The notes beneath the pieces were generated by a model, which was not told where the DNA came from, ran no database searches, and worked only from the letters and a program-made list of their open reading frames with translations. The translations under genes were made by a program, and so were the position numbers. A DNA stretch of 60,964 bases, counting the filler, from Dugesia japonica (Eukaryota), in assembly GCA_001938525.1 (NCBI GenBank). It is 6 parts of 6 records of this genome, joined end to end, with 100 filler letters (N's around TTAATTAATTAA, not from the genome) between each part and the next. Parts side by side here need not be neighbours in the genome. Positions count along the whole stretch, not along the records: positions 50,398 to 60,964 come from MQRL01634507.1; 5 more parts are not named here. One strand, written 5' to 3'. Shown here one piece after another: positions 16,739 to 60,964 of the stretch (positions are counted from its first letter, which is position 1; each line of letters begins with the position of its first letter).

Positions 16739-16887
16739 AAAAAATCCAAAATTTTGATCTAAGTTTTTATATTAAATGAATTCTAAAAAACTACCAATGG
16801 TTATGTCCAACAATTATTCTCGCAATAATTTCAATTGTAAAATAATTATTTTTTATTTATAATAATTAAAAATTATAACATTTACAG

Positions 16888-30896: not shown

Positions 30897-30940
30897 CTAT
30901 TTTGTAAAATTACAATTTGAAATACTATTTACCACATTAC

Positions 30941-35494: not shown

Positions 35495-36120
35495 CCGAAT
35501 GTCTAATTAAAACAAAGCGTTGCGATGGCTGGACAACGGCTTTGGTTCAGTCTGGTGAATAAGCTGCATGGCGTAGCATTTCCCATAGAAGCTCCTTTGG
35601 CATTTCCTGGACTATTTGTGACGTGTGGCCGGGCGATGTCATACAAAACAATGACTTTATGTTGCCTTCTCTCATACTCTGGTCGTTTTTCACGCAATGC
35701 CTTGCTCAGATAGATTATCTGGTCTAGGTGAAAGTCCCTACAACTATTTGACCAGTTTTTAACAGCTCATGATGGATTACACTCTTACGGTGCCACCAGA
35801 TGAACTTTCGATAGTTGGTTTGGAGGCTGGTCAGAGTTGCAAATTGTTTTTCACCATTTTTTATTAATAATAAAATAATAAAATTAATAATTATTTTCTG
35901 TTAAGCGTAACAATTTTATGCAGAAAAAATTTTCTTTTTACCAAGTTATCAAAATTTCACTTGTAATCATTCGTCTTTCAACGTCTCTTAACTTGAGTTC
36001 CTTAGGTAGCAACATTCCTTGCTTGTAAACCTTTCCCATGGCTTTAAAACGTCGACTTATCGGTGATCAACAAACATTTAATGATTTGGCAAGATAATAT
36101 AGATTTTGACACGGATCTGC
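35495..36120 (-). mobile_element. mariner transposase remnant
   Basis: EKRPEYERRQHKVIVLYDIARPHV and a YSPD-like motif; degenerate. Confidence 0.7.
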
Positions 36121-36291
36121 AGTGATTTATCTCAAAAGTAATATTCTAATTAAATTCCGATACTAAGTCAAATACATTTGACCTTAAATCGGTAATTATT
36201 ATCTTAATATAATTGGTATATTAACACCTTTAACCAGCTTTTTTCATATAAAAATGTCTTATCTTGACGGTTACTGCGAAAGACTAAGAAT

Positions 36292-36380
36292 CAGGGCTGA
36301 AGAGTCGGAGTCGTGAAGTCGGGAGGTTTTCCGGAGTCGGAGTCAGAATTGTAATTAATCAATCTTACGACTCCGATCCA
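36292..36380 (+). mobile_element. DNA-transposon terminus with GGAGTC repeats
   Basis: CAGGGCTG followed by repeated GGAGTCGGAGTC and an inverted CGACTCCGA. Confidence 0.45.
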
Positions 36381-36864
36381 TTTTTTAAAAAATTATATAT
36401 TTATGTATATTCAAACCACAAGAGGCCATAATGTCAGAAATACACAAAAACATTGATGTTTTGTGGATAAAAAATAAATAAAAAGTTGCAGATACCCACT
36501 TTTGACCCCCCCNNNNNNNNNNNNNNNNNNNNNNNNNNNNNNNNNNNNNNNNNNNNNNNNNNTAATTTAAAACTTTTAATAAATTAATTAATTAATAAAT
36601 TAATTGATTAATTCTCGTAACTTTGCTTAAATTAGCTTTAAAAAATTAGATTAGACTAGACATTTTAGTAATTTAAATATTAAATAACTTGTTTTACAAT
36701 TGCAATTATTGCGAGAATAATTGTTGGACGTAACCATTGATCGTTTTATAGAATTATTCATTTAANNNNNNNNNNNNNNNNNNNNNNNNNNNNNNNNNNN
36801 NNNNNNNNNNNNNNNATTGCGAGAATAATTGTTGGACGTAACCATTGATCGTTTTATAGAATTA

Positions 36865-37030
36865 TTCATTTAATATAAAAGCTTCGATCAAAATGTTTGT
36901 TTTTTGATTGATATTTGATAACAATTCGACTTTTTGACAATTCCTGACGAAGACAAGGTTGAAATATCGAATTGTTATCAAATATCAATAAAAAACAAAC
37001 ATTTTGATCGAAGCTTTTATTTTAAATGAA
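36865..37030 (+). mobile_element. Penelope-like terminus in inverted (palindromic) arrangement, with minimal hammerhead at 36936-36976
   Basis: The left arm is the reverse complement of the right arm; centre GACAATTC-CTGACGA-AGACAAGGTT-GAAA-TATC-GAATTGTT. Confidence 0.7.
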
Positions 37031-37600
37031 TTAAATAACTTATTGATATTTTATAGAGTATATTTAAATTATTGTATATTAAAACTTGTAATTAAAATTA
37101 CAAATTAGAGTATATATTAAAATATATTTTTTTATAATATACATTATGGAAGATTTTAAATATTAAATTATGAATAAAGCATTTTTTAAATATATATGAA
37201 AATATATTTTACGAAAATATAATATAAATAAGATTTGAATATCGTGAGGCCTGGGTCATTTTTAAAACATACTTTCATTAAAATATGAATGAGAGTTGAT
37301 TTGTTTGAATCATCTTTTTTAAACTTTTCATCAAAAACCAAAACAATTTGTGATTAAATAAAAATTTATGGAGACTTGCGATATTGTTAACCAAACTAAT
37401 AGTATTAATAAAATAATTTTAGAATTATGAACAAAAGAAAATCTTGGGACTTTTTAAACAGTTTTTATTTGAAAAGAAAAACCAAAATGTTTAACAGTTT
37501 GGACTTTTAAATTTATGCTGTGATTTAAATAGGGTATTTTATTTCAAAATATTTGAATAATCTAATACCAAATAAACCAGAACAAATGAAATATTCTTAC

Positions 37601-37732
37601 TCATTTCACATCTTTTACCGACATAGCCTAAGGAACAGTGACAGATACCTTCTTTATCATCACAATAAATTGAATTTTCAGAGCAATCGCATGTCTTTCT
37701 GCAATCGATACCACTTCCCCCTAGTGGACAGT
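37601..37732 (-). CDS. MEGF10/MEGF11/Draper-like EGF-repeat exon
   Basis: ttag|AC TGT CCA...ATG A|gtaag; CPLGGSGIDCRKTCDCSENSIYCDDKEGICHCSLGYVGKRCE; phase 1-1. Confidence 0.88.
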
Positions 37733-39425
37733 CTAAATAGAATATTTTTACCAATTATATAAATTTTAAGAGAAATAGAAGCACATTAAAACTTCTTATA
37801 TTGGAGAATCGTTGAAAAAAACACACCTTTCTCAGTTAACTGAAAAACATTACACTGACTCAATTCGAGTTTCTTGTTGAAAAACGGAAGTTCTTAGTGG
37901 AAATAGTCCTTCCCAAACATACATTTGAAAAAAATGTGATATTTTCGGTTTTTATAAAAGAAATACAAATTTATCGAATAACTTCGACTCCGAATCTTAT
38001 GTTCGTTTAACTGATTAAGTCCCAACAATATATTACGTTTTATTCAATAAATACGACATTACCATTGATAGCAATTCACCAACACCAATCGAGTTATACT
38101 AATAATACCAAAGAGGTAGTAATTGAATTCTCTTTTTTATTTATCTTTTTAAATCGTTATTTTTAATTCTTCTAATAATTAGTTTTGGAAAATAATAAAT
38201 TTCCTTTAATTATTAATTCTCTTTTCCAAAATTAATTTATTTTTCAAAACATTTTTCGGATACAATTTTAAACTGTTATNNNNNNNNNNNNNNNNNNNNN
38301 NNNNNNNNNNNNNNNNNNNNNNNNNNNNNNNNNNNNNNNNNNNNNNNNNNNNNNNNNNNNNNNNNNNNNNNNNNNNNNNNNNNNNNNNNNNNNNNNNNNN
38401 NNNNNNNNNNNNNNTCAGCACCTCTTAATCTAATTTTTAATCTTTGAAAAGCATTTTATATAGGATTTAACATATTTGAATATGGTGGTAAAATTTTTAA
38501 TTCATAATTAAAATTAAGGATTCTAATTCCCGACATAATTTTCAATTTCGGAATTACATTATATCTATCCCGGACTGGGTTATTCTGCTAAACAAAATTA
38601 ATATACAGTAAAACCTAGAAGTTTTTTGTTTAAATTCAGCGCAANNNNNNNNNNNNNNNNNNNNNNNNNNNNNNNNNNNNNNNNNNNNNNNNNNNNNNNN
38701 NNNNNNNNNNNNNNNNNNNNNNNNNNNNNNNNNNNNNNNNNNNNNNNNNNNNNNNNNNNNNNNNNNNNNNNNNNNNNNNNNNNNNNNNNNNNNNNNNNNN
38801 NNNNNNNNNNNNNNNNNNNNNNNNNNNNNNNNNNNNNNNNNNNNNNNNNNNNNNNNNNNNNACCCAAAGAATTTCGTAATGTATTACAAAATATGTATGT
38901 ATATACACGCTTTAAATAATCCCCATGTGACCCTCGATTTTCAAATAGAGCCATTTCTTTTTAGAAATGCGATTTACTTAAACAATATTTTAATACTAAG
39001 AATATTAATATTTTCAAAACAATTAATGGAATTTAAATTTTTTATAGTTGTGGTTGCTATAGCTTTATTACAATTACAATTATTGCGAGAATAATTGTTG
39101 GACAAAACCATTGATCGTTTTAGGGAATTCATTTAAAATAAAAGCTTCAATCAAAATTTTTGTTTTTATTGATATTTGATAACAATTCGATATTTCGACC
39201 TGGTCTTCGTCGAAAAAAAAAAATTTTGATCGAAGTAAGTAATCAGAATATTTATTAAATATAAAATTATAACGTTAATTCGTATTATTTAACAATTTCG
39301 TTATTTAGAATTTCCATGACTTATACAATATTTTAAGCTTCGAGCGGCCGTGCTGTCGTAAAATTTACGACAAATTTATTATTTTTTAAATGAAATGTCT
39401 GTACATGTGCAATTTTAAGAGCAAC

Positions 39426-40019: not shown

Positions 40020-42520
40020 CCTTTACATTGATTGCTTCTTTATTATTATTAGTCAGAATACTACAATGTCCGTATGGTAGACTTTTGTTCTTTTCTACCC
40101 ATACTCTTTTGTAAATTGTTCCACTGAAACCTTTTGATTGTTGNAGTAGCAATCAAGATATAACTTATGATAAATGACACTATTTTTCAGTGTTACACCT
40201 TTAGCTTTCATCGACTCTTTATCACTAAGACGGCTGTAACACTTAGGTTCTAAGAACACAAATTTTTATACTTATTATCCTTTTTTTCATCTTTAAACTT
40301 TCCTACAACCAAATTCAATTTATCATTATAAAGAGGATGTGTTTTAAGATAATTAGAAGTATCAAGCAGATTATCACAAACCATAAAGCCTAACAATGTA
40401 TCTAATTTGATATCTTTAACCTCAAGGAAGAAGCTATCGGTATCACCAGCAGCAATATTGATCTTGCAATTTTCATCCTTTCTATATTTCTCAAGGTCAA
40501 TGTACTGTAATCGGTACATCTTAATTTAGAAAAGATCAAAAACTGTTTGTATCCAAATAAAGCATTTCCTTATTTAACAACATGCAATCAAATCATCATC
40601 TGTCTTAATAAATTTCCTAAACCCTGGTTTTGACGTATAAGTTACAAGTTTTTAGCCGAATTACAAAATCTAAGAATCATTCTCTTTTTTGGGTTTTTTA
40701 CAGACTTCCCATAAAGACTATTATTCAAGAGTTTATAATAATTTTTATTTAGATCAGAATCACTGTGTGGTCTTAAACGGATATTATCATCAATAAATTT
40801 CTTAAAGAATGTGTCTTGAGAAACCTTAACAGCTCTATGAACTTTATTTATTTTAACAACCAACTGTAATTTTTAACAATCTCCAATGAACAATTATTCT
40901 TAGAATAATGTGTGAGCAATAACTTTTTCACCTTAGATCCAGGTGGACTTTGATGTTCAGCAGCAACAGGAAGATCAGATAAATAATTATATAATGCTGT
41001 AAGAATTTCTATATCAACCTGAAAAGTATATCCATAAGATAAAGATTCCAAGTCAAGAATCAAACAATCATTCAATAAGTCATCAAAACCAGAGTAGATC
41101 CATTCAAAATCCTTTTAATGAAGTTTTTTGCTTAAAGCCCAACCATATAAATTATTTATATTAATGTATAACAAGTCAGTGTTTTCATCAGAAAACACAA
41201 TGTTTGTTTACAAAGGTAAGACCTCCTCTAATACCACCCTCAAAGAAAGTGTACATGTAATTGTCAGTCAATAATTGAATTGGATTAGTAAAAGTCATCA
41301 AGGCTGAAGCTCATGACATGCCTGGAATTCCAAAGAAATTAAGTGGTTCAAGTCTATTGTGAGCTAAAAATGTTTTCTTAACTGTTGGAAGAAATCAGCC
41401 AAAAGAAAAAAATCGAGTTTTAGATAGACCATCAAATAGTCAAGTAGGTTATCACATCCAGTAATTTCCCATCTTTCAAGAGCTTTATTATAAGATTCAT
41501 CTGTAATACCATCCCACTTAGGTGGCATTTCATATGTTTATTCTAATATTTGCAAACTTGAAGAAAACTCATATGGGAAAATCCCCTTAGATTTAACAAT
41601 CATATCATCATTAAACTCAATAGAAGTTAAAGGTGTAGAATTTATAGTCCTAACAGCAGCATCAAGAGAAGAGTTAATGAACTCTTCTACCAGTAAACCT
41701 AATAGTAGTATTACAAAAATGTGCAATGAGACATAAAAATTTCTCAGTTGATGTAGGAATACAAGAGATATTCCATTCAGTAAATCTATTCAAACAATGT
41801 TCGAGAATATGATGGAGATCATATCCTCTCAAATTTTGTAAAACTACAGGTAATTCAATTCTAATCTTCCTACTTAAGTTACACTTATAGCAAGAAATAC
41901 CTATATATCTACCAGTAAAGTGATCACGATCTCGAACCGGTTTAGACGTTTTCTGTTTGCATATATAACAAGTCTTAGAAGCCCTAAATTCCATTTCCTC
42001 AGAGAAAGTAATCACAATTTCCTTATTTCCATTCTCGTTATAATAATTAGCAACAGTCTTACTTATTTCCTCAACAGCCTTCAAGAAATTAAATACACAA
42101 TTCAAGCCTATAATATGATTATACTTAAATTCACTAGTTAAGTTATTAACCAGTAAAAGTCCTGCAGAAATAGGCAAGTGCTTATGAAGATACTTTTCAT
42201 CCTTCTCAAGAATAGACTCAAAGTTGGCGTAAATAACAAAAGGAGGTGTAATTGTCTTAGCAAAATCTTTAAACAACAATTTTAACAAATTTAACATGTA
42301 ATCCGAACTGAATCTTAACATTCTTCAAATCCTCTTTTATTTTATCTAATTTCTTTAACAAGGTATCTGTTAAAACTATTTCTCGCATATTATATTTAGC
42401 AACGTCCAATTTCAAGATTTGATGACACCTATAAAGATCTGACTCAATAACAGGGTCAACATGAAAAAGAAATCCACCAACTTGGGCTTCATCTTCCAAA
42501 AATTTATTCAAAACCTCGTC
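40020..42520 (-). pseudogene. Protein-primed family B DNA polymerase (pPolB) with endonuclease VII-like Zn module
   Basis: VIYANFES (ExoI), CYIC...RDRDHFTGRYIG.SCYKCNL, NLRGYDLH (ExoII), KGIFPYE, NNLYGWA, KLLNNSLYGK, GDTDS, GKFKDE and SLPYGH; many frameshifts. Confidence 0.92.
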
Positions 42521-44342
42521 TTCATCACCTATTTCCTTATCAAAAACCTTTGAAAAGATATATTATCCACAGAACTAACTAAATGACAGTCGGATCATTA
42601 ACTGAATTAACAGTTAGATCGACAATTGGATCCGCAACTGGAGCAAGAAAGTCTTCAACTTTAACTACTATTTTGTCATCATCGCTTATATTAATAACCT
42701 CTAGTTTAAACTACTTACAAGGAGGGGTATCAATTTTTATTAATTTATGAAATAAATCTTTTTTATTTTCCTTATTAAATGAATTTAAATGGTGTGCACG
42801 AACCTTATAAAATTCTTCATATGTACCTCAACTTATTGTAGTGCATGCGGGATATATGTAGTAATAATAAGAAATTCCATAATATTTCTCCATGACATCA
42901 TGACAAGAAATATCATGTATTTTATTCGAACAATATTTTTAGTATCTCGAACACTTTTCTATAAAAAAAAATCTTAAAATCGTGGTTAATAATAAAATCA
43001 ATATAATTAAAAATAAAAATGATAATAATAAAATGATAAAATAATAATAATATTAGTAATAATATTAATCAAAATCATAATAAAAATCAAAATAATAATA
43101 ATTATTGTCCCCATATTATTTAAAGATTATATATTAAAAAATTAAAATAATCTATATTAGAAAATTTAATCAAAATAAAAGAAATAATAATTAAAATACC
43201 ATGTGAAAAGTTTGAATAAAATTAAAATAACTAAAAAATGTGAATAATTAAAATATTTATTAAAGAAACCATGTGTACAAAATTAAATCAAAATAATAAA
43301 AATATTAATAATTTAATATAATATATATGAAAAATTAAACATTAGAAATTTGTAAAGCTTGTAAAAATTAGTTGAAATTTTCAAATGCATGACATTAACT
43401 ATTCCTACATAAAAACCATATTTCTCTGAAGAGCAATTAAGAGTAAAATTTTCCTTAAGGATTAATTTTATTTAAGAATTAATTAAATTTATTTAAGGAT
43501 TAATTAAATTTTTAATTAATTAAAAATAAAATATTATGCATTAAAAATGGAGGACAATTATTAAAAATCAAAATAATAAATCTTACTTTTCTGTGTATAT
43601 TTTAACACATCTGAATCATTCGGTATATTCTGCATATTTTCAACATAATTTGACATACTCTAATAATAAAATAAACAAATTAATTAAAAAGATTAAAAGT
43701 ACTTGATGGAATGTTATTTTATTATTTTCATTCATGTTTTGATTATTATTAGTTTGCATTTTGAAATTAAATCTAAATTAAAAAATTAAAAATAATTAAT
43801 AAAGTCTTACTGTTGAAAGTTTTTCTAGACTTATGTAGCAAATAAAAATGTGCTTCTTTTATATACCAAATGGTTACATAATTGAAACACAAAATTTAAA
43901 TTAAAATTGAAACGATTTAACAAAAAAACATTTCATATTATTTCTTAATAATAATAGTAATTTAATTAATATTTAAATAATTTAAACATACAATGTTCAA
44001 ATATTATTTAGATTTTTTATTTCTTCATCAAAGACATTTATTTCTAAATAATTTAGATTAAATGAAAATTAAATTAATCTTTAAATCAAACTAATTTAAA
44101 AATTTAATCTATAAACCAAATTAATTAAAAATTTAATGTACTAAAACTTTACAATAAAACTTAAATCTACTATAAAAATTTAAATAAAACTTAACAATAA
44201 AATTAAAATGACTTATAACAAAATTTACACAGTAAAATTATAAATTAAATAATTTTAAATTATAAAATAATAAATTCAATACAAAATGTAATCCAACATG
44301 TTGATTTTTTCAGCATATTTGATACTTTTCTAGAATATTTCT

Positions 44343-44777: not shown

Positions 44778-45990
44778 TTAAATCAATATTTGTCTTTTGG
44801 CAGTAATTTGAATCTCGTTTTCAAATACTCCGTAAATGATTACATGTGCTGGTGCCACTAATGTAGAATCGAATTTNNNNNNNNNNNNNNNNNNNNNNNN
44901 NNNNNNNNNNNNNNNNNNNNNNNNNNAAGGACAAAAGTGAAAAATGGATATTTGGTCTTAAAATCTTCTAGTGTTATTCCACAATTCATATTCTTGTTTA
45001 AATATCCCATATTTCTAACTATCGATTGCATATATGATGTACTGTAATCATTATTTTTAAAATCTTGCGAGTAAGTCTTTCANNNNNNNNCATTCTTAGA
45101 CAATGTCAAAGGTTTAACATTGAAATTATCAAAAAGTGAGCTTCGCATTTGATAACTTCTTTTATATCGTTCTTCGTATTGAAATGTAACCAGAATAAAA
45201 GTTGGTAATCTACGAACTCCAAAGATTTGCTCCTTATAAAATTATGAACTGTCTTTACTTATTGCATACGATACAATTTCCTTGGTTCTTATAGGATAAA
45301 TAGCATTTTGTTTGGTTAATCCAATTTGATGAGCTGTTAGTACTGATGAATCCACTCGAACTCTTAATAATTGATATTTTGGTTCATCAAGTTTTGATTC
45401 TAAACACATTTTTGCCTCAGATCCTTTCAATCGAATGTGAGAATTGACACCTGGAATAAGATATTTTGGTTTTTTCCATAAAATCTAATTGTAGAGATCT
45501 ACATAAAGACCATGGTTTTTATGATCTAATGCTTGATTGTCTAAAATTATCATTTCCTTATCTGATTGCGTTAAGAGAAACATCTTTTGTATCTCTATTA
45601 TAATTCAAAATAGTTTCAATCAATGCTTTAGGTACATAAGTTTCATTTCCATCTTCAACTTTAATATTATTTATTTGAATAATTACATCCTTGAATAGAC
45701 TATGCAACATGAAGTTCGCAGGCATTACATCGGCTTTTGGTTCCAATTCCTTACTATTCTTAGATACTACCTTCACTTTAACATACAAAAGAGTATCATT
45801 CAAATCCAAATATTCAGTTTGCGATTCATTTATAAAAACTCTACATCATTTGTACTTTCAGAAATATTATTCATTGGAAACACATCTTCAAATACTCCAT
45901 ATTCAAAAACCCCTTGAAGTAATGGACGATCAAAAATGCGCAATTATGTTTTTCCACAAATCATTAGTCAAATATGATTTTACATCTTTT
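44778..45990 (-). pseudogene. Maverick major capsid protein (double jelly-roll, PY-type)
   Basis: IFDRPLLQ...VEF...EYLDLNDTLLYVKVKV...NFMLHSLFKDV..QINN...KALIETILNY, AIYPI, and C-terminal VIIYGVFENEIQI; gaps and frameshifts. Confidence 0.8.
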
Positions 45991-46399
45991 TATTCGTTAG
46001 TTTATACCCATCAAGATAGAATTCTTACGTTTTATTCAACTTCCTTTAAGTTTTTCTTCAACCTTTGGTTTNNNNNNNNNNNNNNNNNNNNNNNNNNNNN
46101 NNNNNNNNNNNNNNNNNNNNNTCTTAGATACTACCTTCACTTTAACATACAAAAGAGTATCATTCAAATCCAAATATTCAGTTTGCGATTCATTTATAAA
46201 AACTCTACATCATTTGTACTTTCAGAAATATTATTCATTGGAAACACATCTTCAAATACTCCATATTCAAAAACCCCTTGAAGTAATGGACGATCAAAAA
46301 TGCGCAATTATGTTTTTCCACAAATCATTAGTCAAATATGATTTNNNNNNNNNNNNNNNNNNNNNNNNNNNNNNNNNNNNNNNNNNNNNNNNNTTTTAT

Positions 46400-46699
46400 T
46401 CAACTTCCTTTAAGTTTTTCTTCAACCTTTGGTTTTGAGATAATTTTTATAAACTCATCTGAATCCAAAAAGTTGTTAAGTTCATTCATTGGTAAAATGA
46501 ATGGTAAAATTTTTGCTTTACTATTTATTAGATCTTGTGCTGTTTTCATTCCAATTGCACCAATACGTTTAAGAAAATACAAAGCTAATCGACCAATTGT
46601 TTGCAACCATCCAGATCCATACTGTTTTCCTACAAAGTATGATAATTCTCCACTAACTTGACTAGTGCTATATAATGCTATAATATCAGGATTAGACAT
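46400..46699 (-). CDS. Small Maverick putative core/virion protein (QxGxG motif)
   Basis: MSNPDII...YFVGKQYGSGWLQTIGRLALYFLKRIG, located between the minor and major capsid genes; 5' part duplicated at 47392-47511. Confidence 0.6.
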   Translation of the reverse strand: MSNPDIIALYSTSQVSGELSYFVGKQYGSGWLQTIGRLALYFLKRIGAIGMKTAQDLINSKAKILPFILPMNELNNFLDSDEFIKIISKPKVEEKLKGS

Positions 46700-46709
46700 T
46701 TATTTTCCT

Positions 46710-47341
46710 AAAATCTTATTTAAATGAGCTTTTAGCATGTTACTGTAATGAAAAATTAAATAATTCATTTTTCTTTAATGTATACGTTTTGAATATATCT
46801 TTAAAAATGTATTTTACTAATTCATCTAATTCTTGTAAACTTTTAATGTATAAATCATTTTCAAACTTCAGGTAACTAGTTATTCCTTTACTATACGTTA
46901 ATTTAAAATGAACCTATTCAATGTCTTTATTATTTTTAAAATCTTTAAAAGGTATAATACTTCCACTATTTATATTTTTCTTTAAATTATTAAAACCAAA
47001 TATTTTTGCCACTTCTAAATTTTAAAATTTAATAACATAATCATGATATTTTTCTATTATTATCATATCGTAGCCAAATAACTATTTCAATTTCTTGATC
47101 CTCACAAATCATTTTGTTATCTTTGTTTGAAATAAAAACAAGAATATCCTTAGTTTCTGATTTTCCAGTATCTATTTTAACCATTGCTTTGCAATAAATT
47201 GGAAATGTATTATATAGAAAAGTAAAGTCTTCGAATGATACTTCCTAATTACCATTCAAGTAAATATGATTATCAAGTTCAACTATAAATTTACTGGCTT
47301 TATTATCTGGGTGAATACGTGTACAGCTATTACTAGGTAAA
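46710..47341 (-). pseudogene. Maverick minor capsid (penton-like) protein; duplicate at ~47515-48153
   Basis: N-terminal LPSNSCTRIHPDNKASKFIVELDNHIYLNGN*EV matches the LPSN...PxN..S.F...L...I.L.G.WEV signature. Confidence 0.72.
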
Positions 47342-48171
47342 NNNNNNNNNNNNNNNNNNNNNNNNNNNNNNNNNNNNNNNNNNNNNNNNNNCAAAGCTAA
47401 TCGACCAATTGTTTGCAACCATCCAGATCCATACTGTTTTCCTACAAAGTATGATAATTCTCCACTAACTTGACTAGTGCTATATAATGCTATAATATCA
47501 GGATTAGACATTTATTTTCCTAAAATCTTATTTAAATGAGCTTTTAGCATGTTACTGTAATGAAAAATTAAATAATTCATTTTTCTTTAATGTATACGTT
47601 TTGAATATATCTTTAAAAATGTATTTTACTAATTCATCTAATTCTTGTAAACTTTTAATGTATAAATCATTTTCAAACTTCAGGTAACTAGTTATTCCTT
47701 TACTATACGTTAATTTAAAATGAACCTATTCAATGTCTTTATTATTTTTAAAATCTTTAAAAGGTATAATACCTCCACTATTTATATTTTTCTTTAAATT
47801 ATTAAAACCAAATATTTTTGCCACTTCTAAATTTTAAAATTTAATAACATAATCATGATATTTTTCTATTATTATCATATCGTAGCCAAATAACTATTTC
47901 AATTTCTTGATCCTCACAAATCATTTTGTTATCTTTGTTTGAAATAAAAACAAGAATATCCTTAGTTTCTGATTTTCCAGTATCTATTTTAACCATTGCT
48001 TTGCAATAAATTGGAAATGTATTATATAGAAAAGTAAAGTCTTCGAATGATACTTCCTAATTACCATTCAAGTAAATATGATTATCAAGTTCAACTATAA
48101 ATTTACTGGCTTTATTATCTGGGTGAATACGTGTACAGCTATTACTAGGTAAANNNNNNNNNNNNNNNNNN

Positions 48172-49209
48172 GCGTTGTTCATTGTTAACTAATTGAGATG
48201 CAGATATTCAAGTAGGTGTTTCATAACCATGCCATTTTACATATAATTGTTTATATTTACCAGTTCCTTTTGACTTTATAATCTTTTCTATTCTAAATAG
48301 TGATGGCTGTTCTATGACTTGTAATTTTTGTTCATAGAATTTTCTAACAATAATATTTTCTTCGTGATCTCTAATCACATACATGACAGGGTTCTGCTTT
48401 GTATTAATCTTTGATTTTTGAAATACTTCATCACTTCAATTATTATTGAAATATTTGATAAATAATGAAGCTGATATCTTTGAGATTCTTACATGATCAC
48501 CAACTTTATATTAAGTTTATAATTGCTTTTGGTTTTTGTTTCAATAACCATAATTTCATAGAATTGTAAGATGATACATCAACAGGTCTTGCTCCATTTA
48601 ATCCTTTTTGATTTGTATGATTATAACTGTCAATTAATTTTGGTAATACATGAATCCATGTCTTATTACTAGTATGTACAAAGTACGTTTTCAATGCATC
48701 TCTCAATGTTCGATTAAATCTTTCAAAATATGCCGCTTTAAATTGTGAAAATACGGAATAATGNNNNNNNNNNNNNNNNNNNNNNNNNNNNNNNNNNNNN
48801 NNNNNNNNNNNNNNNNNNNNNNNNNNNNNNNNNNNNNNNNNNNNNNNNNNNNNNNNNNNNNNNNNNNNNNNNNNNNNNNNNNNNNNNNNNNNNNNNNNNN
48901 NNNNNNNNNNNNNNNNNNNNNNNNNNNNNNNNNNNNNNNNNNNNNNNNNNNNNNNNNNNNNNNNNNNNNNNNNNTAATTCTTGAATATGGAATCATTTCT
49001 ATCAAATCCATTTGCCATAAATCGTCAATCCCATAGTTTTTATACGGTCTTGTTGGAAATATTTTCCACATTAGCTTTTTCAAACTGTACGCTAACTGGT
49101 TCAATAACCACAGTTTTGTCTCGCTTTTTGAGCTTTTTGTCGCTTTCCATAACTTTTCCAGTCCTTTGAATCCTGCTCGATTTTTTGGGTCTTTCCATAT
49201 TGTTTCCAT
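48172..49209 (-). pseudogene. Maverick retroviral-like (rve) integrase with C-terminal chromodomain
   Basis: WKDPKNRAGF, IDDLWQMDLIEM, KAAYFERFNRTL, WIHVLPKLIDSYNHT, KVGDHVRISK, FYEQKLQ and RIEKII...YVKWHGY. Confidence 0.92.
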
Positions 49210-50397: not shown

Positions 50398-52858
50398 TTA
50401 TAATAAGTGGATTTATCTTATAAATAATTTTATTGGTAATGGATTTATTTTATTGTAAAATTTAGTCATGAGTTGAAATGATTGGCGTGTGTGTATTTTA
50501 GAAATCAGTATAAATACTGATTGTTTCTTGTAAAATTTTGGAAATTTGTGAACTGAGAAAACCTGTCTCTACGGCTGGCCTTTTCTCTGTGTCAATAAAT
50601 TATAGCGCTTAGTTAACTCTAAATAAAATATTTCAAAAGGTTTTATTTTTNNNNNNNNNNNNNNNNNNNNNNNNNNNNNNNNNNNNNNNNNNNNNNNNNN
50701 NNNNNNNNNNNNNNNNNNNNNNNNTTATAGTATTTACATATAAACCTCAACAGTAAAAATCAATTACACACAAGTAAGAGAACGAACCATAAATATCTTT
50801 TGTTGAGTTATATACCCAACATAAGTATTACTTAAACAACATCCAAAAGCCTAACAACCCAACATAATGCACAAAATTATAATATAATAAGTAATGAACT
50901 CTTTAATCAGAATGTCAAAAAAATAAAACAAATTGAATAATAACTATCAACAAAAACTATTTTAACAAATTTATTAATAACGGATCAAACCAAATAAAAT
51001 TTATTGTTGATTGGGGATCACGATTGTTTTTCATAAATCGTTAAATTTAGGATTTTCAATGATAATTCGAAATCATAATTTAGCCTTTTTGGTAATTTTT
51101 TTAATCATACAGTTAGAGATTTTTAGTTATAATTGAATTAGGATTTTTAAAAAATAATTTAAATAGTCCAGTATAGGTTTCTCTATAATTATTTTAGATC
51201 GAACGATTTGAGGTTTTCTGAAATTTTCTATTTTTATTCGGCGGTTGCCAAATAAATACATTTTTATAATCCAATTTTCAAAATTTGGTTTTATAATTCT
51301 ACTTTGTTCTGTTTTCAAAGTTTCAATTTTTTGGCAGTTGCCAAGTTTTTTTTAATTGAATCGCTTTATATTATATTATTAAAATTTTGGATAATGATAT
51401 TTATAATAATACACATAAGTATAACTATACTAGTAAGTAGTATGCTTTGTTTGTTGATAATGAATATTTTAACACTGAATAATAAAATTATTTGATGATT
51501 ATATTAGTTATTAAAATGAATTGAATATAAATAAAAATGGTTAAAACATCAAACAATTAGGAACCAGTGTTTTATTTGCCCACCAGTAACTATGCTATAG
51601 CATTACATGAACGTAACTTCCGTAAAATAAATATGAAGAAATATTCTTTTCTATTATTGGTGACAGGATAACATGTTGTAAAAGTTAAGCAGCAATTCTA
51701 AATTCCTCAAGAGACGGCTTTTTAAATCCACAATAGAAGTCGAATCAGCCGCAGCAAATCGTTACCTCCATAAAACATTTTGTATTTACCAACTTGTTTG
51801 AGCCAAAGTAATTTTGCCAATCATCACCAGTTAAATCCCTTTTCTNTGTAACTCCACTATGATTTAGAAAATAATTAATATGAAATTACTGTTCTCATAA
51901 GCCATGATAGAATCGATAATAAGTCATTCTCTTGCCAACAATCGTTATTAAATACTACAGATGGCTGATGAATATTGCAACACTAAAAGATCACTGATGT
52001 TAGTTGCAAATGGAGTTGCCCAGTAGTTCCTTCGCGTTGTTTGTGAAGTGATTCATATTTAAGACACATTGAGTCACCAATTTCCAGTAACACTCACTTC
52101 AGCNATGGATGATAATTGTGTGCAAATGACTGGTACTATTGTGTTAGTGACATAACGTCTCAGTCTGACATAATTATTCTGATGTATATGCGCAGTTGTT
52201 GTCATCTAAATTAAAATTTTTTGTTTTTGTACATAGAAAATCACCATTAGAATCCACCCAGTTATTGGAGTGACCAGTAATTATCATTCTCAAATTAAAC
52301 TTATTATTATAATCCTTCGCATCACTGCTACTATTTTTATTAATAGTATTACAGCGACCCTGGGTTACCACTAACATCATGTATTTTTTAACAGGACTAC
52401 TATTAAAAATATTGTTGGAAACGTTATTTTCATCGATATCATTATTTGTAATTATTATTATTATTACTTAACATCAATTTTGTCACATTCAATATATAAT
52501 CATAATTATTACACCTCTCGTTCATATTAAATCTAGGATTATGAGGTTGCTATTATTAACATATTTTTTTGGTGGTGCTATCCACAGCAATGGGTGCAAA
52601 GCCTTGTTACTAGCGTTATCATCACTTCGGAGTATCAGTGTTAGCCTTACCACCATTCTAATCGTCATTAGGGTGATGATATTAATTACATTATTCGGAA
52701 TAACAACATCCTGGTCAGGTCAGTCACGGTATTCGAGAATATTATCCCAACTCACAATATCTATTAATAAAACATAGATATGTTTTAACGGTTGTTACCT
52801 TCAACGTTATCATTGTTAAAAACTTCTTTTACCTTATTATTCTAATGCTATTTAAGGA

Positions 52859-53055
52859 ATGCCTGCCGAGCTAAGAACCATGTTACGCTTCATCTACAAG
52901 GCACGAAGATCTTCCTGTCGGAAGCAATAATAGCTCATATACTCTTCCCCACCATGATAGAACATCCAGACGCAACCGACTTGAGTTGCTTCCGAGAAAT
53001 GTCTTCACTGCCATCGGAGGTAGACTTAGACGATGATTTATTATCCCTCAAGTAA
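52859..53055 (+). pseudogene. Orphan cassette copy 2, ORF-A (EHPDxTDLxCF motif)
   Basis: MPAELRTMLRFIYKARRSSCRKQ/AHILFPTMIEHPDATDLSCFREMSSLPSEVDLDDD; homolog at 58241-58425. Confidence 0.65.
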
Positions 53056-53165
53056 TTAAGAAACGAAATAAACTTGTTGTCAGTGACTTGATTGACTTTA
53101 CCATTATTTATATCTTCACATTTCAATTTGAATTTTTATTTTTTATTTCCTTCATTTAATTTTAG

Positions 53166-53465
53166 TGAATTTCATCTGGGAAAGTGTGGAATAGGCGTAC
53201 TCGAATGATGATTTTTCGACGCCATGTGAACCCCCACAATATGGATGCTGGCATTTTAGCAGATCGCACGAACTTGCCGCCAGTACTACCAAAATTGGAA
53301 TGGTCCCCAGAGTCTAGTAACCCAGTTTACATATAGGACTCCTGCCCCAACCCCGGCGGTAAGTGCGTTTATCACAAATCTACTTTGGGGCATCAGGGAA
53401 CCGACTTCCAATGAAGATGCCGATAATACAGCACCCGCAGCAAATGTCGAGAACTGATTCTGTGA
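53166..53465 (+). pseudogene. Orphan cassette copy 2, ORF-B
   Basis: ttag|TG AAT TTC ATC TGG; RRTRMMIFRRHVNPHNMDAGILADRTNL/...YYQNWNGPQ...PAVSAFITNLLWGIREP; frameshifted. Confidence 0.65.
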
Positions 53466-53710
53466 TTACATTTTGTTTTGTTTTTATAATAAATGTCTTA
53501 GCATATACCCTTTAAAGAAATTTATTCTACCTTTCTTAAGCATTTGATTTTATTCGTAATCACATTCATACGTGATATTAATAGTAATGACTTTGTGGTG
53601 TTACCCTTATAATTTCTGATTTGTTAAATAACGTAGCATCGTTGAGAAAATACATTCCCCCCTTATTTTCCCCTATAGTCATTGATTTAATATAACATTA
53701 AATTATTCAG

Positions 53711-54059
53711 TGCATTCATCCCTGAATCGATCGGTGGCTCTCACGAAAAAGATTCGAAAACAGTGAGGACATAGAAATGTCCTGGCATCTTTATAAATTA
53801 GCGAAGCGAAAATAGGAGGCCGAAATAGCCGCAGCAAATGCCAAGGTAAAGCAGTATCGGAGTAGAAGCAGAGGCCTCCCATGCTCAGGAACGCGCCTGG
53901 AAATACCAGGCAGAATATTTTGCTGATATCATCTGGTCCCTCTATGACCATGAGCATGAACTGGTAACCGACGTGCTTGAGTTAAGGAAAAGTATCCCAC
54001 TGGAACCGTTAATGATTGAGAAGGCCACACAATTATGCCTTACAGTGAGTGGCTGCTAG
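53711..54059 (+). pseudogene. Orphan cassette copy 2, ORF-C
   Basis: ttcag|TG CAT TCA; HSSLNRS...EMSWHLYKLAKRK*EAEIAAANAKVK...HAQERAWKYQ...LRKSIPLEPLMIEKATQ, aligns with 8875-9233. Confidence 0.7.
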
Positions 54060-56256
54060 TAAGTCAATGAATTAATGTAGTCCAGTAACTATCCCCAAAT
54101 CTAATACCATCATGAATCTGCTTCTGCAATTATTGATTTTCTCTCAATATCATGGAATAAAATTGGGCAATTTGCAAAGATTTAAGTATAATGCGGTTAT
54201 TGTCCTGTGATTTCCAATTATCAGTTTATGAAATTTATCTACAATGTGAATTTTGAGTTCAATAAAATATTTTTTGTTTGGTTTTATTTGTTGGGATCTA
54301 GATGATTAATATTAGTTACGATGATTAACACTTTGTTTTAATATTGTTTAGAAATTTTGTAATTTTGATGTATAATTTAATGAAGTCTGATTTTGAAAGT
54401 AACTTAACTGGTGACCACGCCGAAAATGTTAATTTATTGACACGCCAACAACGAAAATTAATTTTAGAAGCCTTGNNNNNNNNNNNNNNNNNNNNNNNNN
54501 NNNNNNNNNNNNNNNNNNNNNNNNNCAAAGATGCTTCAGAAGCAACAGTATGGCTGAAAGAAATCGAAGATATGGAGTATGATTCTAAGTTGGACTGCAT
54601 AGAAACTCGCATACAATAGCAGCAACCACAGAAAAAAGAATCACTATAAATACAAATATCTAAAAACACTAAAACACACTTAAAACTAAAAATTACTTTA
54701 CAACAATTTGGTTTAAAAACTTATTTATGGAAGAGCTATTTGAAGAAATATGTAATCAGAAGTGAACAATTCCAACAATTATCTACGAAGTAATTTACAG
54801 TTGTTTTTTGAAGTAGTCAACCAAAATCATCCACCATCGTAAACTGAGATGCCATTAAAGGAAAATAAACAAACAAATTGTTATGGAAGAAATCCGATAG
54901 TTCTAAATGATGAATTTGAATAACAAAAAGACTGAGGCAGCAAATATTTAATGAGGAAAGCGAGGGACATAATCACGAACGATGTTAATGACGAAGACAA
55001 AGAATGATTAATGATGAGATAGAAAGACAATGAGAAACGATGTTGTAACCGTTCGATGTCAGAGATGAAAATGTCTAATGGTGAAGTTGCATGACAAAGA
55101 CGAATGATGTTTAAGAACAAGGCAGATGTTCGACGACAAGTTGAGTAAAAGCTGGATGAAATAGATTTTTTGAATAAAGATGAAGTATGATGGTAAATTG
55201 AGTTCACGTGTTAGATCGATTAGCCATTTATGCTTTTGTGAGTAACGAAGAAGTGTAAGTTATAAAATAAATTGGTTCCAGGCTACTAAAAGAAATCAAA
55301 ACGATTTTGCAGATGTGGACAACTGAAAATGAGTAATTATGAAACGATTTAGAAACTAGAAGGGAGATAAATGAGCAATATAATAAATTAGATATAAAAT
55401 GTTGAAGTTTTATTTGGTGATGATCGAGGATAGCTCTTTTGTAAGAATGTTCTTCATTTAATGATAAATTGTATAAAAAGATGTAGCAACAAAGGAAGTA
55501 GAGTAATTATATTTATTATTAATTCATTTTATTTATTTCTATTTTATATTTTTGAAATCATAATAATGAATTCTTGTGAGTTTTGATTAATTGATTAGAA
55601 TTAAATATCATATGATGTTATCGTTAATAATGGATTAACTGAATTTACTTTTATCAATTTTTCTTTTTATGAATCATAATTGAAGATAGAAATTAATGAT
55701 TAATTGTGTTGATCGTGATTTAATATTGAAATTAATAAATTATACGCCAGTTATGTAGCTCTATTATTATTGATTAATAATTTTTAGTTAATAAGTCATT
55801 TATGAATTATTATTTAATAGAAATGTAAAAACCAGGCATAGTATAGCAACTTAATTTCCTATCGAAAAGGAATTTTTATTAGTCAAAATAGATTTCGTGA
55901 GATTATGTTTTATTGAAATAATAATAGATTAATGGCATTATATTGAAATGAAGAGATATGAGAGATCTTAAATTATTAAATCGGAATTTTATAAATAATT
56001 ACTACGATAATAATTCATCGATATTTTCTTAAAAAGTAGATTAAACAGACATTTTCTAAAATGAATTAAAATTAAATCGTCAGTTCATGAGAGTAACAAG
56101 GGATAAAGCTTTCGCGTCTCCTTAATCGGATAAGGGATAAGATTAAAATCTGAATAGCTGAATTAAAGTATTAAGAAACGATATAAAATGTTAAGACAAT
56201 AAAAATTTATTAGTTGTTAATATAATATACTTTTGTAACATTGTGTTAATGCAGAT

Positions 56257-56655
56257 ATGGTAAAGAAATTTTCAGTAGAGGCCACAAGATCTATACACTG
56301 CTGGATATTCACTACACCACCACCAAACAATATACCGGTACTATTTGACTCATGGGGTGAGGTCAGAACTGATAGAGATCCGTTGATGGTCAACATGGCC
56401 AAGCTAAGAAATAGGGGGACAGCAGGCCAAAACCTTCCATAATGAATATGTTATTTGGAGGAGCGGGTAGCATTTGAAAAATACCTAGCTCGACATAACC
56501 AAGCCCTGATAGACATGCTATGTCGAATCTCCAATCATTTGCGAAAACCGCCGACCATCACTGATAGAAGAACAGTCGTCGAGAGGGGTTTATTGGAGCA
56601 CAGCCACGCCAGAAAACAACTAGAGAATGGAATGTCTCGTATTTGGAAGATCTAG
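56257..56655 (+). pseudogene. Further orphan ORF of the same style (unknown function)
   Basis: tgcag|AT ATG start; the ORF-track entries 56257-56442 and 56455-56655 are in the same frame, separated by stops; higher GC than flanks. Confidence 0.4.
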
Positions 56656-57559
56656 AAGACAGTGAAGTCGTAGAAAAAACAATAGTGTAATCAAACAGAA
56701 AATAATGATAAGAATAAAAGAAACCAGTAAACATTGATCATCTAAATAAATTAAAAGCTCGGAAAATACTACGAAAAGTTAGGACTTAATTATTGTGAAA
56801 GAATTAAATAAACTCAGGAACAAGTGATTATTAAATTAAAATATAATAAAAGAGAAAATTAATAATTGAAAGTGCTCAAGAAGATGATGAACCGATTAAA
56901 GAAACCTCAAATGATAAATTCAGAAATAAAAAGTATAACAATTCAATAAATTATTGAATAAATACATTACACCAGAAATATTAAACGAAAATGAAATTGG
57001 AAATGGAATTAGTTAAATATTATTATTTATAATTATTGTGGGGGTGGAAACACCCGGAGAATGAAAAACAAGGCTGAGGGCCCAAACTATAAGATAATGA
57101 AGGAGAGGGGTTGAAAAAAAGAGTAATTAGAAATATGCACCAAATGGCTAACATTATAACAGATTTATAAATAAAAGAATAAAAATTCTGGAAGAAAGGT
57201 AAAACGACAGAAAGATAATGACAAATGAATAAATTCAACCTCAATTCTGCCTCAATAATTAAAAAAAATTACAAATTATCAAGAAGAAACAAGAAAAACG
57301 TTATTGGAAAAATAATTAATTAGTCATAAATTTTAATTAATTTTAAACAAAAAAGAAAATAAATTAAGTCAAAAAAAATCATAGAAACTTGGTGCAAGAA
57401 AATATGAAAAGAAAATGTGACAGAGCAATAGGATTTTGCAATTAGAAAACTTCATTATCATCAAGAAGACCCTTACCGAGATTTGAAAAATGGACCAATG
57501 AAGGATCAGAAAATAAAAATAAAACAAAGAACAGAAAATCACATGGTGACTTAAAAATA

Positions 57560-57750
57560 GCCACCAATGGAAGTCCAAAAAATCTGGAGAAAAATTTAAA
57601 AATTGGCACCATTACCAATCAGAAGCAAGAAATTTGAATTAAAAATAGATAGCCAATGCAGGAAGATTCGGGGTATAACCAGAATGGTATATAAACCCCC
57701 CAAATATTCTATGTTGTTAATTATTTTAATTGTCATGTAACAATAAATAT
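57560..57750 (+). promoter_or_regulatory. LTR-like promoter: three CCAAT boxes, TATA box and downstream AATAAA
   Basis: CCAAT at 57564, 57615 and 57653; TATATAAA at 57688; AATAAA at 57742. Confidence 0.45.
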
Positions 57751-58240
57751 TTTAAGGATAAATTGATTTATATTAAACAAAATCTGTATTACAATTATCA
57801 AATAAAAGAAATTAATAAGAAATATATCCTTTTATAGCAAACCACTCACCAAATTCCATCCAAAATTTACATATAAATCCAAATCATACGGGATTGACGA
57901 TCATAAGTAAATGTGAAATATAATTCCAATAATTGGAGCTAATAAGAGAGATGTTTCATTTCACTCAATAATTAAGAAATGTTTCCCCGATTTTCTATGA
58001 GTTGTAATGATAACAGATCAGATCGGCCATCTAGACACACCATAACACTTAGATGGTCTCATTTTATTACATGCATGCTCACAGGAAAATCAACACCTCT
58101 TACTAGACCTGTCAAGCTGACTCATTTTTTACTTACTCTGGTACTTACTTACTCCGAGTACTTAGTGGCCTTCCCATAAGTTTCAACATTTTAATCATAA
58201 CTATATGGGTTGATCTTAACCAGCCATCTAATTATAGATT

Positions 58241-58425
58241 ATGCAGGCAGAATAAAAAAGGCACTACGCACGATTTTGAGACAGCGTAAGACCACCAGAC
58301 GGAAACAACTGATCGGATACTTGTTGTTCCCACACTTAAAGGAACATCCCGATGAGACAGACCTACAGTGTTTTGTCGAGATGTTCCCACTGAATTTTCA
58401 GGTGGACATAGATGCCGAAAACTGA
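58241..58425 (+). pseudogene. Orphan cassette copy 3, ORF-A
   Basis: atag|att ATG CAG GCA GAA; MQAE/KKALRTILRQRKTTRRKQLIGYLLFPHLKEHPDETDLQCFVEMFPLNFQVDIDAEN. Confidence 0.65.
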
Positions 58426-58560
58426 AAATATATTAATTAATGTTTTTATAAAATAAATAATAGACCAGTTATCTTGACAGTTGAATTTCTCATTACATTA
58501 ATTGTTACATATTATTGTAAATTTCGATGTTAATGATTTGATATCACTTTATTGTTATAG

Positions 58561-58841
58561 TGGATCATAAGTGGAAAATTCTACTTGACCAAAGGACCGG
58601 TCGTACTATTTTTAAGAAATATAAAAATCCATACGATTGAAATGCCGGTGTCCTAGTAGATAGAGCAAATTTGTCGGTTGAGACTGCAGAAGAGGAAAGA
58701 GAATGAGATGCGAACGAGCGGCACGCCTACTATACCTGGAATGGGCTTGACCGCAAGCGTGCAGTGTACCATTCAATTACGACTAACCAATATGGCGCCA
58801 GCGCGGAACCACAGATCACCCGGGAATGGCATAGTTACTGA
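58561..58841 (+). pseudogene. Orphan cassette copy 3, ORF-B
   Basis: atag|TG GAT CAT AAG TGG; DQRTGRTIFKKYKNPYD*NAGVLVDRANL...ERHAYYTWNGLDR. Confidence 0.65.
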
Positions 58842-59208
58842 TAGCTCATACAATGATAATGAAATGATGTTCTTATATTTTTTTTTAAAAAAAGATTAAA
58901 ATGATGAGGCTAGTCGATGGATCAATCGTCATTCGGAGGGGGATGTAAAGAAATAATATGTGAATGTTAAAATAATTATCAAAATGAATTATAATTCAAC
59001 GAAGATTTGCTAAGGAGATAGAGAATCCAACTCTATCTACAATGACAAGTGATCGTAGATCGGTTGAGACTTACAGTAGGAGGTTAACATTCAATGCATT
59101 AATTAGATTAACCTTGAATTATAATGAGTAGATATTATTGAATATTATCAATAGTTGCATTATGAATTGCTAAATTTGATCATGAAAATTATTATTTTTG
59201 TATCTAGA

Positions 59209-59750
59209 ATGTCTTAGTCTATTACCAGAGCAGTAGCCAACAGATCATTAAAAGCTGAAAGATGTTCTTTCCCGACGAATGTTGCAAACACCATGCCAGA
59301 TATGTGGGATTCTCTTGGTAAGTTTGAAACTGATGCGAAACCATGGTGGATTGCGCAGGACCGCATCCGTCAGAAGGATCTTGATCTCCTAATGATGAGG
59401 AAATTGTTAATTCGACAGAAAAGATACTGAGACAGAAGCTAGTAATACTCGATAGCCTACAAAAGAGAGTGGAACAACATGAACATGCATATAAAAGTCG
59501 ACTCGCGGATATGATGGCCCAGCAAGAACATCGTGAAAAAGAGCTGTTCATTCGATTTACAGAGTTGGCCCAACAAATACGACTGATACAGAAATCACGC
59601 TCCACACAGATCGAAGCAGAAGAATACACTAAGATGTCTGAGCGATTAACAGCTAAAATAGAGGCTGCGCTTCAACAAGTCCTTGTACCATTAGATGGAA
59701 CTCTTGATATCCACGAAACTACTGTGATTTATGTGTTAACAGCAATATAG
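59209..59750 (+). pseudogene. Orphan cassette copy 3, extra coiled-coil ORF
   Basis: ctag|A ATG start; one early stop and a frameshift lead into the 93-aa heptad-rich ORF 59469-59750. Confidence 0.5.
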
Positions 59751-59939
59751 TTTTCGTTCAATTGTTTCTCTTGTCTTGATTTTATGTTCAACAACAATAG
59801 TATAAACTACTCGTCTGATCAGAAAGATTTAAAGAAAAATTCAATACAAAATTAGATTGATTTTGATTTAAAGTTGCTATTTGATAATAAATACATTGAG
59901 CATTATAATAACCAATATAATATTTCTTAATTATTGTAG

Positions 59940-60277
59940 TGTCTAGTGCCAGAAAGATAACCGCTGATACTTCAATAGCGGACATTCGGAAAAAGTGGGC
60001 CTCTACAAAAGAAATTGCAGCTAGAGATAGTCGAGCTACAACGAAGAACTCTGTTCTGCACGAAAAGAACACTAAGCTACAGGAAGGAGATCTTGCTCTA
60101 TCGCAGACATGTTGAGCGATGGCCGACATTATCAAGTCGTATGCAGACAGAGAGAGCATAATAATCGCGACTGTCCGAACTCTGACACAAGTATACAATT
60201 CCGAAAAAGAAGTAAAAATAAAAGAAAAAACAATTCAAAGAAGTCATCTATCTGGACTAGTGATTGGTTTTGTATAA
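59940..60277 (+). pseudogene. Orphan cassette copy 3, divergent ORF-C-like coiled-coil
   Basis: gtag|TG TCT; RKKW...IIKSYADRES versus KRRW...MIKNYQERES in copy 1, with spacing differing by one residue. Confidence 0.45.
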
Positions 60278-60964
60278 AATAAAGTTTACTTCTAAAGAGT
60301 TGTTGTGATTACCATCATATAAAATAAAGAACGCCTTTGAATTACTAAAAGCCAATGAAACCGAAATTGAAAACTACAAGACGAGATACAGCATAGTCCC
60401 GCTGAATCCGGGAACGGAGGATCGTGAAGCAGGAGAAAGCATCAGAAATTTCTATGGTTACTAGGTATAATCCCCCAGACAGAAATCACAATCAAAAGAA
60501 GGTAAATGTTAAATCTAGAGAATGCAGAAAACGAAATCAGAAAAAATAATATTCAACCAACACCAAAAAGCCTAGTAACCCAACATTATTATTATAACTA
60601 TTAATAGTATTCGTTTGCGTGATTGAAGGTTCTCTTTAAAAATTTATTTGAATGATTTGATATTACATTTTAGTAGAATCTGATTTTCATTTATTTAAAA
60701 TATTATTTATTTTTTTAATTAATTTTTATGTGATTTCATATCTCCCGTGGTCTGGTCCTAAATAAATCTAAGACAAAATGCGCAATAGGTATAATACGGA
60801 GTAACAATTAGCCTTTATATATCTGATAATTAATTGATTAATAAGTGCAAGGTTTAAAACAATTATTTTGATTTTCTCACGGACATCAATAACAACAACG
60901 TTTCGATATCAAATAGTGATGTTATTGTTCATTGGTGATAAACTAGTACAACTTTCACACCAAT

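Follow-up and report, generated by a model that had tools for sequence, protein, structure and literature searches.

At the end of a 60,964-nucleotide (nt) stretch of the genome of the planarian Dugesia japonica (NCBI GenBank assembly GCA_001938525.1), referred to here as the window, are two arrays of short open reading frames (ORFs) that very probably belong to a long terminal repeat (LTR) retroelement; a third array lies on another scaffold. The window is composed of six scaffolds of 8–11 kilobases (kb) each, joined by identical N44-12mer-N44 spacers, and is AT-rich (GC content 0.19–0.38 across 2-kb bins). Scaffold 6 (MQRL01634507.1, positions 50,398 to 60,964) carries the first array and, to its right, a 6,297-nt unit holding the second; the third is encoded on the minus strand of scaffold 1. 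The ORFs are as follows, each given, where there is one, with the signal found at the AG dinucleotide preceding it.

52857–53055 (+), ORF A1: AG, own ATG at +2; one frameshift
53166–53457 (+), ORF B1: AG then TG; compared with B3, has frameshifts and a deletion
53711–54059 (+), ORF C1: AG then TG; stops and frameshifts; coiled-coil-like
54380–54619 (+), ORF G: leftmost in the 6,297-nt unit and interrupted by an N gap; resembles gag by eye only
56255–56655 (+), ORF E0: AG, own ATG at +2; distant paralogue of E2, absent from the original prediction
57977–58179 (+), ORF H: AG, own ATG at +2; 66 amino acids, open; a candidate, outside the 11 ORFs counted below
58238–58425 (+), ORF A2: ATG at +3; from AG+2, the main frame runs open over 61 codons
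58561–58841 (+), ORF B2: AG then TG; two internal stops; nearest to an intact homologue, P0004 (tblastn E 5e-16)
59208–59750 (+), ORF E2, originally listed as an extra ORF: own ATG at +1; coiled-coil-like, interrupted by stops and a frameshift
59940–60277 (+), ORF X, originally listed as C-like: AG then TG; one internal stop
9473–9840 (−), ORF B3: own ATG at +2; three internal stops
8875–9233 (−), ORF C3: AG then TG; one internal stop
8376–8758 (−), ORF D3: AG then TG; stop-free across 126 codons, 9 of them hidden by N

The arrays thus read A-B-C (52857–54059), E0...A-B-E-X (56255–60277) and B-C-D (9840–8376, minus strand of scaffold 1). All ten start coordinates given in the original prediction proved correct when re-read in the sequence. 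Its description of one ordered set present three times was overstated, as B occurs in three arrays and A and C in two each; the order is collinear where genes are shared. As the three arrays merely overlap in gene content, they are not copies of one set. A second copy of D was not found in the window, nor any A on scaffold 1, and no homologue was found for H. Upstream of A1, a hydrophobic frame of 155 codons with two stops and single-copy-like depth (52310–52774, plus strand) is perhaps another gene of the array; at 51902, an ATG accompanies an acceptor-like AG.

Homology was assessed by local protein alignment of the 55 pairs of 11 ORFs, with breaks read as X and 1000 shuffles. Six of the 55 pairs are significant at p < 0.01, namely A1/A2 (z 27), B1/B3 (z 40), B2/B3 (z 20), B1/B2 (z 14), C1/C3 (z 42) and E0/E2 (z 6.7); A (two copies), B (three) and C (two) are true homologues. 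The ORF at 59940 is not a significant homologue of C (p 0.03 and 0.07 against C1 and C3) and is missing the motifs HSSLNR and AKR.WEAEIA, so that the ORF-C motif is supported by two copies rather than three.

The proteins are conserved over strongly diverged DNA, as had been predicted: amino-acid identity is 42–57%, yet blastn of the window against itself matches no two arrays. In all five homologous pairs compared, third-position identity (0.24–0.41) is below second-position identity (0.65–0.74), and the proportion of synonymous differences (pS) is saturated at 0.84–1.00 versus 0.30–0.39 for non-synonymous differences (pN). Synonymous saturation with low pN shows long purifying selection before these copies decayed, and both the selection and the later decay proposed originally are borne out. 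Decay is light to moderate, with 0–3 internal stops per ORF in the eight frames counted, against an expectation of about 6 stops per 100 codons in random sequence, and with frameshifts in A1, B1, C1 and E2. Each ORF terminates at its own stop, and the stop places match between sister copies of B and C.

All 11 ORFs start immediately after an AG that is preceded by a T-rich stretch of low GC, and GC content steps up across it from 0.12–0.33 to 0.35–0.50. In six of them (B1, B2, C1, C3, D3 and X) the AG is followed by TG, the frame opens after both bases (at AG+2, not AG+0) and there is no ATG; the other five (A1, A2, B3, E0 and E2) have their own ATG within 3 nt of the AG, the two signals being mutually exclusive. 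Ten of the 11 reading frames share one phase after the AG. One signal or the other is present at 11 of 11 ORFs versus 118 of the 690 AGs in these regions; among acceptor-like AGs it occurs at 14 of 61 on the coding strand and 6 of 45 on the opposite strand, under a filter that recovers 7 of the 11 chosen sites. For A, B and C, the N-termini of which are fixed by homology, the signal is found in seven of seven. In the alignment with B2, the codon spanning the acceptor is matched by the first methionine of intact P0004. Downstream, AATAAA or ATTAAA lies within 40 nt past the ORF in 6 of 11 cases, compared with 21% of positions.

The array-bearing unit of scaffold 6 and the array of scaffold 1 are bordered by the following features.

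54289–60585 (+), 6,297-nt unit, likely a giant solo LTR, with ends TGTTGGG/CCCAACA; holds G, E0, H, A2, B2, E2 and X
54284–54288 (+), left TTATT, likely 5-nt target-site duplication, bordering TGTTGGG
60586–60590 (+), right TTATT, likely 5-nt target-site duplication, bordering CCCAACA
50823–50864 (+), second CCCAACA end of the 60585 type, 78% alike over 46 nt (z 6.0); its upstream part enters an N gap
8127–8133 (−), CCCAACA end of the repeat of the scaffold-1 array, 249 nt past the D stop
8097–8119 (−), primer-binding site (PBS), 7 nt beyond CCCAACA, on the same strand as B3-C3-D3

The pairing of TGTTGGG and CCCAACA with identical 5-nt flanks arose in 6 of 3000 shuffles. The two ends of the unit share an inverted, imperfect similarity over ~14 nt and no direct repeat (p 0.21 for 54289 versus 60585); in the absence of direct repeats, the unit is not a complete element bounded by two short LTRs. 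Inside its right end is a 10-nt inverted repeat (60456–60465 and 60571–60580). The reverse complement of the PBS has the exact geometry of a transfer RNA (tRNA) 3′ end, from T-loop to CCA over 23 nt, and is the sole such match on either strand of the window, with 0.165 expected per shuffled window; the tRNA is presumably tRNA-Pro-like. The scaffold-1 array is thus located upstream of both a CCCAACA end and a PBS. No PBS follows the ends at 60585 and 50864, as solo or 3′ LTRs would have none, and no purine tract directly precedes 54289, which fits a solo LTR. Paired LTRs of one element were not seen on these scaffolds, which at ~10 kb are too short for a giant element.

Many diverged relatives of the array and unit are present in DNA contigs. 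Contigs of DNA run X2, which may be the assembly's own sample, were mapped to 50725–60964 at 82% likeness, giving a summed contig depth that does not equal copy number but reaches 96–3455 over 56539–60300 and 17194 in the bin 60301–60642, before falling to 17 in the next bin. The first array (A1-B1-C1) is also repeated (summed depth 48–1059). Variant-bearing contigs number 65 at 54346, 63 at 54544, 22 at 58671, 44 at 60113 and 89 at 60469.

The original prediction held that the ORFs are accessory genes of a large selfish element or of an integrated virus, rather than host genes. The first part stands and can be narrowed to an LTR retroelement by the PBS, the TG...CA ends with their 5-nt duplication and the many relatives. 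An integrated virus finds no support: the scanned flanks hold no capsid or polymerase, and IMG/VR no relative. Extending the arrays outwards yielded LTR ends and a PBS; it did not yield gag-pol or capsid genes.

Within such a retroelement, a position of the array inside a giant LTR of ~6 kb is the arrangement that we favour, as fairly likely, and its combination with the split start codon described below has close to even chances, or slightly worse. The 6.3-kb unit would be a solo LTR, and scaffold 1 would preserve the final 3 kb of a 5′ LTR related to it, followed by its PBS. The element may be Burro-like; near the arrays, the window has no reverse transcriptase.

In the mechanism that we envisage, the genes would be located in the U3 region of the LTR. 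A transcript from the LTR promoter, or from a promoter-like stretch at 57.5–57.7 kb, would splice a leader to one of the acceptors and stop at the polyadenylation signal of that gene, which would act as an alternative last exon, and unspliced RNA would read through. In the six AG-TG genes, the ATG would be completed by a leader whose last base is A. Having no ATG in the DNA, these genes would be translatable only after splicing and silent on unspliced RNA. Subfamilies may gain and lose array genes. Two features are candidates for the promoter and the leader.

57495–57693 (+), promoter-like stretch with four CCAAT boxes and then a TATA-like box, upstream of H-A2-B2-E2-X; its function is inferred
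60466–60507 (+), candidate short leader, with a TATA-like box lying 120 nt from the right end and then, 36 nt on, a donor-like site

The TATA-to-donor spacing of 35–36 nt at three ends is suggestive, although post hoc and with no significant alignment (p 0.35). Of the end-proximal donor candidates, two of three end in A and one in G. Two oligo-dT RNA runs gave 188 and 28 reads, mostly less than 95% alike and partly aligned, among which no splice joint or pile-up of starts or ends was seen, the reads being too few to weigh either way; run X7, in which every one of the 30 bins is covered, may be DNA. Upstream of B3, the minus strand at 10254–10780 bears a TATA-like box at 10775, a donor at 10718 and a 134-codon frame with five stops.

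Taken furthest, the LTR would be a portable multigene expression unit in which 5–7 orphan genes, as alternative last exons, share one leader and six start codons are made by splicing, a tentative reading that we hold less firmly than the favoured arrangement. In that case, a full battery of accessory genes would be dispersed across the host genome with every solo LTR.

Several observations weigh against the giant LTR with spliced start codons. The middle of the unit (54829–56538) is single-copy-like, with a depth of 12–34, near the flank level, and the depth of 17194 in the last bin is what would be expected from a short LTR with many solo copies. TTATT makes up 0.8% of 5-mers in this AT-rich DNA, such that its duplication may be due to chance, and a looser test (a 7-nt TG/CA inverted pair with a 5-nt duplication) returned three further AT-rich pairs within the scaffold. 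The end at 50864 is preceded by just 140 nt and a 74-N gap before unrelated-looking AT-rich DNA. Domains of gag, pol, env, capsid and transposase are absent from the 54 read-through frames in and beside the arrays (Pfam, 0 of 54), and the link to a replicating element consequently rests on one PBS and the ends. On the side of the start codons, the acceptors of D, E and X were chosen by eye; the polyadenylation signal is weak, because the spacers are AT-rich; the methionine of P0004 is explained just as well if a gene-calling program took GTG as the start; the candidate donor at 60502 has G rather than A as its last base; and the perfect donor at 10718 also ends in G, with an ATG of matching phase 16 nt upstream that is followed by a stop.

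The scan for element genes gave no gag-pol Pfam match among the other scanned ORFs of scaffold 1, and no capsid, packaging ATPase, protein-primed DNA polymerase B, integrase or long terminal inverted repeats on the scanned flanks of scaffolds 1 and 6; pieces of the polymerase and the integrase were found on other scaffolds of the window. ORF G was considered as a gag by eye, and searches of Pfam and PDB returned no match for it. About 700 nt downstream of the PBS is a decayed frame of 320 codons with 13 stops and hydrophobic stretches (6440–7400, minus strand), which has no Pfam match and may represent an accessory ORF lying upstream in the internal region.

The strongest rival keeps the element and the spliced genes, but places the array in the 3′ internal region, at the position of env or ORF3, before an LTR of ~160–180 nt; it is a real possibility, though clearly the lesser one. 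Scaffold 1 would then be a tandem junction running from array through purine tract and LTR to PBS, an arrangement in which the following feature, a further point against the giant LTR, finds a place.

8304–8313 (−), purine run of 10 nt, a possible polypurine tract, 177 nt before the scaffold-1 end

This arrangement would also account for the more than 30-fold step in depth at the last bin and for the likeness of the short piece ending at 50864 to the 60585 end, and the common layout has extra 3′ ORFs whose expression relies on spliced messages (PMC5408684). It requires a tandem insertion on scaffold 1, however, and it turns the match of TGTTGGG and TTATT at 54289 into a coincidence of the rarity seen in the shuffles, albeit at an end that is itself high-copy (the 65 contigs at 54346). 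Moreover, neither the missing PBS after 50864 nor the last 308 nt of the scaffold-6 unit, in which no purine run of at least 9 nt is followed by TG, fits this arrangement.

Two further rivals are both unlikely. In one, the array belongs to a non-standard element with inverted ends, such as a Ginger-like integrase transposon, an integrated DNA virus or a Polinton satellite, and the PBS is there by chance or is that of a neighbour. The inverted, imperfect similarity of the unit's ends would fit, as would the Polinton-like pieces on other scaffolds, and short genes in succession, served by alternative acceptors and polyadenylation sites, resemble the late transcription units of DNA viruses. Yet the PBS stands exactly where the LTR end predicts and on the right strand, and the scanned flanks bear no transposase, integrase, capsid or polymerase domain, nor does IMG/VR hold a relative.

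In the other, the genes are borne by the LTR but their starts are not built by splicing, being supplied instead by the ATG of a leader that ends in phase 1, or by a GTG read without splicing. The shared phase of 10 of the 11 frames, the perfect donor at 10718 with its in-phase ATG, and the possibility of reading AG-TG as an in-frame GTG all suit this proposal. It leaves unexplained why TG is kept in four unrelated families and why every gene lacking TG has its own ATG within 3 nt, and the stop that follows the ATG near 10718 speaks against it.

A host multigene family or operon, now pseudogenes, is very improbable: acceptor-like AGs with host-like AT-rich spacers, and the trans-splicing known in flatworms (in the part of PMC9851317 consulted), would be compatible with it, but the matching stops in B and C sisters and the variable gene content rule against exons of one host gene, the flatworm spliced leader ends in AUG (same part of PMC9851317) and would put the six AG-TG genes out of frame, which rules against spliced-leader trans-splicing, and the arrays are flanked by LTR ends and a PBS, all three of them broken.

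The array proteins have few relatives. A HMMER profile of B, the only family searched at this depth, was run against 1.84 billion proteins and gave three matches, of which one is real: P0004 (94 amino acids, E 5.5e-13), a single-member entry from a 512-nt ENA contig, for which no further relative was found. The other two, lamprey nebulin and an unnamed repeat protein, are sums of weak repeat matches and were rejected. C3 and B3 had no matches in word-index searches, no PDB sequence matched at E below 0.5, an Atlas search with D3 and P0004 gave no usable match, and no relatives were found in IMG/VR or JGI metagenomes. Pfam returned just sub-threshold coiled-coil matches for 3 of 13 pieces and none for P0004. 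Neither a tRNA gene nor an Rfam family turned up.

Structure prediction and Foldseek, suggested originally as a route to the folds, did not lead to one: the AlphaFold models are of low confidence (predicted local distance difference test scores of 52 for B and 63 for A) and Foldseek gave no match. B may be a small β-hairpin/helix protein, A helical, and C, D, E and X coiled-coil proteins. The first 25 residues of B and P0004, with the pattern W-x4-D-x2-(S/T)GR-x-IF and a predicted β-hairpin, look WW-domain-like by eye, a resemblance that Pfam, PDB and Foldseek do not support. If the favoured reading is true, the arrays would add at least six protein families that match no library tried. Their functions can only be guessed by analogy with retroviral accessory genes, as putative regulators acting on the host cell or on the cycle of the element itself.

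The closest known systems are the giant Ty3/gypsy elements of dugesiid planarians, Burro and GYPSM1, which are likewise very large LTR elements of AT-rich genomes, with accessory ORFs outside the polyprotein and with decay. Burro elements exceed 30 kb in total, with an internal region of up to 25 kb and LTRs that together exceed 5 kb; they carry accessory ORFs, and decaying fragments with stops and frameshifts occur in one dugesiid (PMC6431247). Section 7 of that source describes BIR, BCL2, MATH, env and dUTPase domains in the polyprotein and one upstream accessory ORF; ORFs inside the LTR and acceptor-started genes, as proposed here, are unmentioned there. None of these Burro-type domains was found in the scanned frames, on scaffolds that are too short for an element of more than 30 kb.

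Ordinarily an LTR has a regulatory role, and no more than one viral gene extends into it. Small genes in or near U3, expressed from spliced RNA or from an internal promoter, include sag of mouse mammary tumour virus, lentiviral nef and foamy-virus tas/bel (the last with an internal promoter). Such retroviral genes number one to three and end at the common polyadenylation site of the LTR, whereas the arrays here hold 5–7 short genes, each with an apparent acceptor and polyadenylation signal of its own, six of them lacking an ATG in the DNA; no sequence similarity to retroviral accessory genes was seen. The ORF3s of bdelloid rotifer LTR retrotransposons, as presented in the consulted part of PMC5408684, are similar in being captured, family-specific ORFs of coiled-coil and transmembrane types expressed from spliced messages, but are single and located downstream of pol in the internal region, in contrast to an array upstream of the PBS.

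If the favoured reading is true, exchangeable orphan genes that had been under strong selection would be arrayed within an LTR, which would be a novel organization for a retroelement, and solo LTRs would gain coding capacity. The literature searched, within a scope that left the primary Burro papers, their supplements and Repbase outside, contains no description of such an LTR gene array; the novelty would mostly be lost if any of these already annotate the ORFs. Gene callers would miss array genes, as six have no ATG in the DNA. A giant planarian element is said to aid regeneration through a captured anti-apoptotic domain (cited in the part of PMC13465017 consulted), and further element-borne genes would be testable candidates for host–element interplay. 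Elements of this kind are reported to be de-repressed after piwi knock-down (PMC8532177).

The window also bears ordinary animal genes, although an exact look-up of five of its proteins matched none of them. A cytochrome P450 (1217–2893, minus strand) is encoded by a single open frame of at least 496 codons and is apparently intronless (Pfam p450, E 3.7e-74). Tyrosine-kinase-type exons are located at 13520–17091 (plus strand), exons of a multi-EGF-repeat host gene (MEGF/PEAR-like) at 30466–37754 (minus strand), and two kringle-like exons, 47% identical, on opposite strands at 20025–20264 (plus) and 26031–26255 (minus).

Relics of DNA transposons lie at 33821–34123 and 3500–4700 (both minus strand), 26400–27500 and 31700–32250; among them are an ISXO2-like transposase (E 1.3e-14), which we take to be Merlin-type, and mariner/hAT-like pieces recognised from weak matches or by eye. 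Two decayed Polinton-like pieces occur at 27900–28700 and 40250–42560 (minus strand) and share 67% DNA similarity; both derive from a protein-primed DNA polymerase B that includes an endonuclease VII motif. A further stretch (45560–48800, minus strand) has a weak integrase-core match at 48509–48763 and a motif that is presumably that of Polinton minor capsid proteins, and contains exact duplications of 762 and 223 nt across N gaps that look like assembly artefacts.

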